DNA of 12,733 nucleotides. Source: a virus. Lineage: Duplodnaviria; Heunggongvirae; Uroviricota; Caudoviricetes. Position numbers and translations under genes: made by a program. Of the stretch, positions 8,500 through 9,503 are shown in pieces (within the stretch, counting starts at the first letter, position 1; each line of letters begins with the position of its first letter). The notes beneath the pieces were generated by a model that was not told where the DNA came from, searched no databases, and saw nothing but the letters and a program-made list of their open reading frames with translations. The stretch lies in the IMG/VR virus record IMGVR_UViG_2728369554_000005; one strand, given 5' to 3'.

Positions 8500-9503
8500 C
8501 CCCTGAATCCTGCCGGGATCTGGCTGTAGTCCACGTTGTCGTAACTGGATTTGAAGTACGGGTCTTCGCGTTTTTCGGTGTACGTGCTTACGGACGGCGA
8601 TAAGCGCAGGGAAAGCTCATCCCATTTTTCCCGCAGCTTCGACGGGCTGAGCACGTTACGGCACCAGNNNNNNNNNNNNNNNNNNNNNNNNNNNNNNNNN
8701 NNNNNNNNNNNNNNNNNNNNNNNNNNNNNNNNNNNCCCATCCTGTACACACATCAGGCGAATTTCGTTTGCCCAGGCTGTCCAGTTCGGTTCTTTAGGAC
8801 GTACCACTTCGCCGTCACATTCGGCGGCCTGCTCGTACAGAGCGATGATTTTTTTCCAGAGCCACTGTGCGCAGGTCAAATCATCCTGCGTTCCCCACTG
8901 GCGCTTTTTAGGGCTGAATACAACCGCATCAGGATGGCGAGTTAAAAAATCCTGTTCAGCCATCTGCGTGTCCGGTTGCGAAGCGTCCGGACGAGAAGAG
9001 GTTTTATTCTCTGTAGTAATCTCTGTTGTATTCTCTGTAAGATCATTGGGCCATTTTGACCCGATGACAGCGTGTCGTTTTGAACCAATGGATCGTGTCA
9101 TTTTGCGCTCATCCATCAGGTCACTTTGACCCGATGGAGAGGTGCATTTTGACCTGATGGATTCGTTCACTTTGACCTCTTCTAAAAGCTCACTTTCATA
9201 GTTGATCGTGTAGAAGTTGGTCATGTCACGCTTCGATTTATTGAGTTGCTCGCGACGCAAAACCCCAAGTGATTTCAGGCTTGCAAATGTGCGTTTCAGA
9301 GTGGACTCTGACCAGAACGGAAACTGCTCCAGCCACTGTTCTGTCGTGTTATAAACCCAGCGAATTCCGCCATGCTCAGTGCCTGAATTCGTTTCATTCA
9401 GCCAGTAATGAAGCTGCTGCAACACAATTGCCTCATTCAGACCAATACGGCATGCAAGATCACGATTTATCACAATGGGCTGGGATGTCATTAACAGGCT
9501 CAT
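8496..9503 (-). CDS. Replication initiator (lambda O-analogous, origin-binding) with internal iteron array; interrupted by N gap
   Basis: 335 aa ORF in the O position downstream of cro/cII-position genes. It contains a 23-bp-period direct-repeat array in its coding sequence, as lambda ori lies within O. 68 N inside the gene make the C-terminal third uncertain. Confidence 0.6.
   Translation of the reverse strand: MSLLMTSQPIVINRDLACRIGLNEAIVLQQLHYWLNETNSGTEHGGIRWVYNTTEQWLEQFPFWSESTLKRTFASLKSLGVLRREQLNKSKRDMTNFYTINYESELLEEVKVNESIRSKCTSPSGQSDLMDERKMTRSIGSKRHAVIGSKWPNDLTENTTEITTENKTSSRPDASQPDTQMAEQDFLTRHPDAVVFSPKKRQWGTQDDLTCAQWLWKKIIALYEQAAECDGEVVRPKEPNWTAWANEIRLMCVQDGXXXXXXXXXXXXXXXXXXXXXXXWCRNVLSPSKLREKWDELSLRLSPSVSTYTEKREDPYFKSSYDNVDYSQIPAGFRG
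8668..8735. other. Assembly gap (68 N)
   Basis: Run of n characters inside the replication initiator gene. Confidence 1.
9045..9182. repeat. Iteron array (putative phage replication origin)
   Basis: About six direct repeats of consensus ca(c/t)tttgacc(c/t)gatgg at roughly 23-bp spacing (starts near 9052, 9076, 9099, 9122, 9145, 9168), one containing the inverted motif ccatcagg. Adjacent AT-rich tctctgt repeats at about 9008-9040. Confidence 0.7.

Follow-up and report, generated by a model that had tools for sequence, protein, structure and literature searches.

In the tailed-phage record IMGVR_UViG_2728369554_000005 (12,733 nucleotides; this whole stretch is called the window here), a replication initiator gene on the minus strand at 8496-9503 carries an array of direct repeats within its own coding sequence. 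We consider it very likely that this region is the vegetative replication origin of the phage together with its initiator, built on the plan of phage lambda. The initiator is of the 'O-only' type, and its extreme C terminus belongs to a tail type that never accompanied a lambda P gene in our surveys and that resembles the end of E. coli DnaT. The best overall reading, to which we assign a probability of about 60%, is a lambda-type origin whose initiator recruits the host DnaB-DnaC complex by means of this DnaT-like tail. The parts of the gene and of the origin are as follows.

8496-9503, minus strand: replication initiator gene (from the open reading frame (ORF) list; PHROG 391 'replication initiation O-like', 8e-84)
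9174..9503, minus strand: N-terminal winged-helix domain (aa ~1-110), the putative iteron-binding domain
8970..9173, minus strand: disordered inter-domain linker (aa ~111-178), from the AlphaFold2 predicted local distance difference test (pLDDT) score
8589..8969, minus strand: helical C-terminal domain, homologous to the C-terminal half of lambda O
8499..8558, minus strand: flexible C-terminal tail of ~20 residues, ending ...YDNVDYSQIPAGFRG-stop (low pLDDT; hhalign to DnaT)
8668..8735: run of 68 N, standing in for what near-identical genomes show to be 53 nt (18 codons, RTHKQICEMYSRVSRDPF)
9040..9183: array of iterons that begin at 9055, 9079, 9102, 9125, 9148 and 9171, a 23/24-bp register
9113..9137: near-perfect palindrome of 25 bp in the middle of the array, coding strand CCATCGGGTCA-AAG-TGACCTGATGG (inverted repeat search)
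9005..9040: A+T-rich stretch of three 12-bp repeats, TATTCTCTGTAG / TAATCTCTGTTG / TATTCTCTGTAA (repeat finder and Tandem Repeats Finder)

Four of the iteron copies are good (9055, 9079, 9125 and 9148), the copy at 9102 is degenerate, and the one at 9171 is a half copy that retains TTTGACC alone. Tandem Repeats Finder reported three arrays, with periods of 23 bp at 9121-9178, 69 bp (3 x 23) at 9055-9196 and 12 bp at 9008-9039 (score 50 for the last), and a separate repeat finder recovered the same registers. When the core TTTGACCYGATGG was searched for with up to 2 mismatches, the 12.7-kb window gave 5 matches, all within 9055-9160 and none elsewhere, a clustering greatly in excess of chance; they are direct at 9055, 9079, 9125 and 9148 and inverted at 9113-9125, where the inverted match abuts the direct match at 9125-9137 and forms the central palindrome. 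The iteron core, GGTCA-N3-TGACC, is dyad-symmetric, which fits a dimeric binder, and perfect palindromes such as GGTCAAATTGACC are found in the iterons of relatives. A period of 23 bp is not divisible by 3 and takes successive copies through all three reading frames, indicating that the repetition is kept at the DNA level and is not a peptide repeat. The neighbouring stretch at 9005-9040 is the GC minimum of the initiator gene (0.35-0.375 versus ~0.5 in the flanks), and by analogy with the order of elements in lambda it is a putative DNA-unwinding element. On the coding strand the iterons come first and the A+T-rich stretch follows, the order seen in the annotated lambda ori inside O. The two origins are also alike in lying within the part of the initiator gene that encodes the inter-domain linker, and in having dyad-symmetric iterons about two helical turns apart; at least four such direct repeats inside the initiator gene are present here. 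A further likeness is that the window origin has no DnaA box: none was found within 8900-9300 at up to 1 mismatch, and GATC was not enriched in the origin, on which grounds DnaA dependence was rejected. The original prediction, made from the letters of the window and its ORFs, had described six 23-bp-spaced repeats with adjacent A+T-rich TCTCTGT repeats inside the initiator gene, as lambda ori lies within O. The array, the A+T-rich repeats and their placement within the ORF were all borne out, while the figure of six proved slightly generous.

The iterons were found at the same position in the gene (nt ~330-500) and with the same 23-bp spacing in every N-domain homologue examined, including those of Citrobacter, Edwardsiella, E. 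albertii-type P0052, Proteus and Gilliamella, at identities of 30-100%. Conservation of the repeats in homologous initiators had been named in advance as a check on the prediction, which thus passed it. The iteron core drifts along with the N-domain and reads GGTCAAAATG, GGTCAAATTGACC or AGGACAATTTGTCC among relatives. SfII-type initiators, which join another N-domain to a 100%-identical C-domain, have ACCCGTCAAAATCTGAC iterons at 15-bp spacing; the number of these copies varies among near-identical genes (L058, L060 and L074 of our survey, with proteins of 313, 318 and 323 aa), so that changes in iteron number change the length of the linker peptide. Co-variation of iterons with the N-domain is the pattern expected if this domain binds the repeats, and the N-terminal winged-helix domain is predicted from it to be the iteron-binding part of the protein. 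It is from the repeats, their position, their conservation and this co-variation, each observed directly, that we infer origin function. The repeats might instead reflect the coding sequence or past recombination, or might act as binding sites in autoregulation only, and for this one can cite the variable copy number in relatives and the fact that the origin role of the initiator family is itself drawn from sequence. However, a 23-bp period read in three frames, a position and spacing kept across 30-100% identical homologues while the sequence co-varies, and an adjacent A+T-rich element in an anatomy matching the annotated lambda ori make a non-origin explanation scarcely credible.

The full-length initiator, as encoded by a near-identical E. 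coli genome (WP_000054954.1), has 330 aa, whereas the ORF of the window reads 335 aa because its run of N is 15 nt longer than the real sequence. E. coli 20Ec-P-124 matches the window at 100% over 1765 nt on the right flank of the gap and with 1 mismatch in 1367 nt on the left, and both in this genome and in mEp460_4F5 the gap amounts to 53 nt with the frame preserved. There is no room for a loader gene in 53 nt that continue the reading frame of the initiator, and a loader concealed in the run of N was rejected on this basis. Sequence searches of Pfam, NCBIfam and PDB gave no match to the initiator, and a Pfam search at E up to 10 returned a sub-threshold Slx4 match alone; PHROG 391 is the sole family that names the protein, and RefSeq labels it only 'hypothetical protein'. 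In an AlphaFold2 model built on a 67-sequence alignment, confidence is high for the N-terminal winged-helix domain (aa 10-110) and for the helical C-domain (aa 179-297) and low for the tail; the linker between the two domains (aa 112-178) is disordered, with pLDDT <50 over aa 112-156 and of 54 as far as aa 178. The origin DNA, iterons and A+T-rich repeats alike, thus doubles as the coding sequence of the disordered linker. The C-domain is homologous to that of lambda O (33% identity over 148 aa to lambda O residues 135-270, E 1e-26), and the columns P..W.N..R...FW...LR are invariant in a 23-sequence alignment that includes lambda O. The N-domain, in contrast, is not Phage_rep_O (PF04492), a family in which lambda O scores 5.7e-36, and BLASTP found no N-terminal similarity between the two proteins. 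In fold it is similar to RepA_N / DnaD-N-like winged-helix initiator domains; RepA_N plasmid initiators (pSK41 / pTZ2162 RepA; PDB 4pta, 4pql and 5kbj) nevertheless differ from the window protein, with 10-15% identity, no Pfam match, another C-terminal domain and a plasmid instead of a phage context. An exhaustive profile-free search found 12,521 relatives of the initiator, among which N-domain and C-domain recombine freely.

Neither the window nor the complete 41.5-kb SfII genome has a P-, DnaC- or DnaB-like gene. In tblastn searches of the window, lambda P, a phage DnaC-like protein and the DnaC of E. coli had no match, and DnaT matched the tail of the initiator alone. The same queries, DnaT included, gave no match in the SfII genome, whose annotation lists no helicase, loader, primase or polymerase and whose initiator combines the SfII-type N-domain with the same GFRG tail. 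It had been stated in advance that part of the C-terminal domain was hidden by the gap at 8668-8735, that no lambda P- or DnaC-like gene follows the initiator and that the next gene encodes a small regulator-like protein. All three statements agree with our results: the hidden part is only ~18 residues, closure of the gap by comparison with a near-identical genome (another check named beforehand) uncovered no loader but 53 nt of initiator coding sequence, and the next gene, at 8005-8499, is PerC-like (PF06069, 1e-9). An O homologue as the only replication gene has been reported for 34/314 lambdoid phages, whose replication is 'not yet understood' (Zhang et al., Genome Res 2025, PMC12315714); the same study gives mEp460_4F5 as the nearest relative of phage LLS for CI and Cro. 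The window belongs to this O-only class, that of phage LLS, in which one O homologue is accompanied by neither helicase nor loader. The words iteron, DnaB and DnaC are absent from the main text of PMC12315714, and the DnaT-like tail and the rule linking tail to partner gene are additions of the present analysis.

This rule emerged from a survey of 80 viral loci and 80 loci from one genome per species, in which an initiator ORF was called at each locus and the downstream ORFs were classed against lambda P and a DnaC paralogue. A 23-relative alignment including lambda O revealed distinct C-terminal endings. Initiators with Trp-rich acidic tails (NTDW or WNxxEAW) had a P homologue next door in 44/44 loci (3 of these homologues were located by tblastn, the ORF call having failed), while those with IPxGFRG-stop tails had P downstream in 0/102 loci and a DnaC/IstB-like AAA+ gene in 9/102, the rest being without a loader. 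The window protein ends ...IPAGFRG and has no P gene, whereas lambda O ends ...LDLTNTDWIYGVDL, the tail type that always accompanies P. It is the C-terminal half of lambda O that binds P. A 10-residue insert in the C-domain (EQAAExDGExxRP) was considered as the partner determinant and rejected, since it is shared by the two tail types; the partner gene goes with the tail and not with the subtype of the C-domain. The DnaC paralogue found beside GFRG relatives (Pfam 1.9e-17; 48-49% identical to E. coli DnaC) adjoins members of an initiator subgroup that is 70% identical to the window initiator. Initiators with and without this paralogue are 95-97.5% identical and their loci differ by an indel of ~1.5 kb; such an indel among near-identical initiators suggests that the phage copy of dnaC appears dispensable. 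We also noted a third class of initiators (L096, L098-L102, L124, L125, L129, L155 and L158), in which a lambda-O-type C-domain is followed by a C-terminal extension of ~60 residues ending ...WNSIWKQA... or ...KIWAECSQRQ.... No P/DnaC-like gene was present among the callable downstream ORFs of this class, some of whose loci end at a contig edge, and it may be another loader-less solution.

A phage loader of an unrecognised kind might lie among the small neighbours of the initiator (the PerC-like gene and the DUF4222 / 112-aa ORFs) or elsewhere in the prophage, given that new non-homologous viral loaders are still emerging (VdhL, PMC11087808) and that small winged-helix proteins (PerC-like, DUF977, DUF1627) recur after these initiators. 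No neighbour is conserved, however. A PerC-like gene was detected near 49/102 GFRG-tailed initiators and a homologue of the upstream-ORF region in 46/102 loci, the latter going undetected in several loci with a 100%-identical initiator C-terminal region, and 40/102 loci with at least 1.5 kb on both sides have neither; from this presence and absence over 102 loci, the PerC-like and DUF4222 / 112-aa neighbours were rejected as conserved partners. In L006 and L015 Dam lies directly downstream despite a 100%-identical initiator C-terminal region, DUF977 and DUF1627 co-occur with the DnaC paralogue instead of taking its place, and the SfII annotation offers no candidate. A hidden loader is thus a very unlikely explanation. 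Downstream genes at other loci encode DUF977, DUF1627, Dam, MT-A70, ParB-HTH (helix-turn-helix) proteins and RuvC. Downstream genes of ~440 aa in some relatives were considered as DnaB-like helicases and rejected, because one representative had a ParB-HTH match only and the other two looked alike by eye. A small protein with an N-terminal winged helix (PerC-like, DUF977 or DUF1627) nearly always follows the initiator or the DnaC paralogue, as at 8005-8499 of the window and in L018, L031, L095, L119, L123, L145 and L204.

The tail ends ...YDNVDYSQIPAGFRG in the window and ...RDINRISRPDSSVPPGFRG and ...VNHISEPDTEIPSGFRG in relatives, and its last ~20 residues match those of E. coli DnaT. With hhalign, a profile of the GFRG C-domain was aligned to E. 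coli DnaT with a probability of 92.8% (E 3.8e-7), over DnaT residues 160-179 only, and to the DnaT family profile with 85% (E 5.8e-6), over the tail only; the C-terminal ends of DnaT chains in PDB gave weak profile matches at E 0.16-0.7, above the usual 0.001 cut-off. A DnaT-like C-terminal half had been suggested for the initiator; this applies to the last ~20 residues and fails for the globular C-domain, which is homologous to lambda O instead. The tail is invariant among 16 DnaT orthologues, and dnaT lies directly upstream of dnaC in E. coli. The same order of tail carrier and DnaC-type AAA+ loader is found in those relatives of the window initiator that keep the DnaC paralogue. Beyond the tail the likeness to the DnaT family (PF17948) ends, as the window initiator is without the three-helix-bundle DNA-binding domain. 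The Rac prophage operon ydaU-ydaV-ydaW (DUF1376 + DnaC-like + DUF1627-like) offers another parallel: YdaU ends ...VNTVSLPDSAIPPGFRG-stop and is followed by the DnaC-like YdaV, to which the DnaC paralogue of the relatives is 80% identical. The window differs in having no ydaV-like gene, and outside the tail YdaU is unrelated to its initiator. A tail-first scan of viral contigs with the pattern D-x-x-I-P-x-G-F-R-G-stop returned 120 stretches, of which 111 were true ORF C-termini, in ORFs of 121-364 aa. P follows none of the 111, which fall into the following groups.

52: carriers with a lambda-O-type C-domain
11: carriers with a window-type N-domain and a Phg_2220_C-type C-domain
15: phage proteins with a genuine DnaT domain (PF17948)
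7: YdaU-like proteins, five of them followed by a DnaC paralogue
26: other carriers (e.g. SfII-type N-domain + Phg_2220_C)

The tail therefore occurs on at least 4 different globular domains (the lambda-O-type C-domain, Phg_2220_C, the DnaT domain and DUF1376), and one tail on several unrelated replication proteins indicates a portable terminal module. In L204 (IMGVR_UViG_2084038018_000006), the ORF ending at 10180 encodes a YdaU-like (DUF1376-type) protein with two tandem tails, ...KRDINQLPGPDKQIPAGFRG-ARQERDINQISEPDSTIPPGFRG-stop, an arrangement that fits an independent, duplicable module. The DnaT-domain carriers come from 15 viral loci (L174, L177, L178, L182 and others) and are 271-aa proteins in which a phage-type N-terminal region, a DnaT domain (PF17948, 3.9e-18) and the tail are combined; the next gene in L174 encodes a RuvC-like resolvase. 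These carriers show that phages, too, have the DnaT domain as a module, a point relevant to how the dnaT-dnaC operon arose. The literature searched contained no mention of the GFRG tail motif and nothing relevant linking YdaU/DUF1376 with DnaT.

In the mechanism that we propose, dimers of the N-terminal winged-helix domain would bind the palindromic 23-bp-spaced iterons (9040-9183), and the resulting nucleoprotein complex would destabilise the adjacent A+T-rich 12-mers (9005-9040). The C-terminal part of the initiator would then bring in the replicative helicase, its IPxGFRG-COOH tail docking the host DnaB6-DnaC6 complex, most likely through DnaC; by docking on the host complex, the phage would need no loader of its own. 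The suggestion in the original prediction that the initiator may recruit host factors by another route is supported by the comparative evidence. We think it probable that replication depends on host DnaC-DnaB, and we hold the chances to be evenly poised that the tail is the recruiting element, with a binding partner that we infer. Somewhat more doubtfully, the consensus RD(V/I)N-x-(V/I)S-x-PD-x-x-IP-x-GFRG-COOH may be a portable motif that docks DnaB6-DnaC6, probably through DnaC, and that unrelated phage initiator families have captured.

How DnaT itself recruits DnaB/DnaC is described as an open question (PMC5778457, PMC11087952 and PMC13377028). The tail might plug the initiator into PriA-dependent restart by binding PriA, PriB or PriC; the initiator would open the origin, aided by transcription or an R-loop, and the restart pathway would load DnaB. 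The tail is after all that of DnaT, which works in a PriA/PriB/DnaT complex, and in some phage proteins it comes together with the complete DNA-binding domain of DnaT (PF17948, 3.9e-18). The preprimosome structures of 2026, however, have PriA bound by the globular C-terminal domain of DnaT, PriB bound by its acidic linker and the N-domain associating with itself, so that these contacts are already assigned to other elements of DnaT; the passages of that paper on these contacts give the tail no role (PMC13377028). Entry through restart also leaves unexplained why tail carriers stand beside dnaC paralogues in three unrelated contexts, and we regard it as unlikely.

Several points weigh against recruitment of host DnaB-DnaC by the tail. 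Since the loci share relatedness, their counts of tail and partner do not represent independent events, and both origin activity and the contact between tail and partner are read from comparative evidence. The DnaC paralogue stands beside few tail carriers, 5/111 in the tail-first scan and 9/102 in the domain-first sets, and with so few of them the DnaC link rests on three genomic contexts and on the general need of E. coli DnaB for DnaC. Prophages without a DnaC paralogue could be defective, a concern that is countered by the deposition of SfII, SfV, SfIV and mEp460 as phage genome records. A DnaT-DnaC interaction has been called 'tempting to speculate', yet none is documented (PMC5778457, PMC11087952), and the 2026 paper favours the DnaT N-terminal domain as the recruiter of DnaB/DnaC (PMC13377028). 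DopC is an HTH protein of the O-like kind that ends in a C-terminal motif of DnaT, and it adjoins the P-like DopE (Brezellec et al. 2017, PMC5509034); it is a partial precedent for O/DnaT chimeras and, in case its motif includes the GFRG tail, the pairing calls for caution over the rule that P is never found with a tail carrier. Finally, DnaT lacking residues 154-179 loses about two-fold in affinity and cooperativity of binding to single-stranded DNA (PMC4132743), and the DnaT tail could serve self-assembly or DNA binding instead. Extended to the phage protein, this would make the tail an element of self-assembly or of cooperativity on single-stranded DNA and leave the globular C-domain to bind host DnaB or DnaC directly, as in iteron-plasmid initiators or DnaA. 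Such a role is hard to square with a tail found on at least 4 unrelated globular domains, because self-contact should be specific to a domain, and C-domains with the same 10-residue insert bear either tail while the partner follows the tail. We consider it improbable, about as much so as entry through restart.

The window is part of a lambdoid E. coli prophage of the SfV / SfII / mEp460 / e14-like type. Its DNA is 96-98% identical to that of mEp460_4F5, SfII, SfV, SfIV and mEp460, which cover 58-80% of the query; the nearest phage is mEp460_4F5, with 98% identity across the 80% of the query covered, and a prophage in E. coli 20Ec-P-124 is essentially identical to the window. Part of the initiator gene is matched in 3177/5426 complete E. 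coli genomes. The layout around the initiator is that of a lambdoid early-right operon on the minus strand, with the following genes.

10814-11500, plus strand: cI-like repressor
10428-10676, minus strand: YdaS/Cro-like protein
9848-10438, minus strand: CII/CP76-like protein
9513-9851, minus strand: 112-aa ORF (PHROG 1170; present in phage GenBank annotations)
9460-9672, minus strand: 70-aa ORF (DUF4222 per RefSeq, Pfam 1.5e-18; 44 nt overlap with the initiator start)
8005-8499, minus strand: PerC-family regulator-like protein, 164 aa (Pfam PF06069; PHROG 1324)
7352-8038, minus strand: Dam
7029-7355, minus strand: protein with a LexA DNA-binding domain, 108 aa (PF01726, 2.9e-19)
6643-7032, minus strand: RusA

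Beyond RusA come, in order, a KilA-like protein, an HNH-like protein, Q and the lysis genes. The ORFs at 9513-9851 and 9460-9672 overlap in different frames, and phage GenBank records and RefSeq disagree on which is the real gene. The stop codon of the initiator overlaps the start region of the PerC-like gene at 8496-8502 (GGGGTGATTATG), an overlap that suggests translational coupling of the two genes. The 108-aa protein at 7029-7355, between Dam and RusA, has the LexA DNA-binding domain alone, without the S24 peptidase domain, and could be a candidate non-cleavable LexA mimic. Three Firmicutes-binned contigs of the survey, L087 (metagenome-assembled genome 'Bacillota bacterium'), L111 (metagenome-assembled genome 'Veillonella parvula') and L147, contain Enterobacteriaceae-type prophage replication modules; the initiators of L087 and L111 are 67-68% identical to that of the window, L147 matches its C-domain only (50%), and the Firmicutes binning of all three is probably the result of contamination.

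The origin described here is itself an ordinary one of the lambda type, and the O-only arrangement is already in the literature. What is new is that the extreme C-terminal tail tracks the partner gene, and this suggests a hypothesis for loader-less initiation in which a DnaT-like tail would recruit host DnaB-DnaC. A tail common to DnaT and YdaU, and mutually exclusive with the type that accompanies P, provides a testable handle on O-only replication. If it is a recruitment peptide, the questions of how O-only phages replicate and how DnaT recruits DnaB/DnaC would be answered together, and the phage-like layout of the dnaT-dnaC operon would also be accounted for. By the same logic, lambda O would bind P through its Trp-rich acidic tail. 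The GFRG tail would then be the long-sought contact by which the helicase passes from DnaT to the restart primosome, and its capture would enable O-only lambdoid phages to replicate without a loader of their own.

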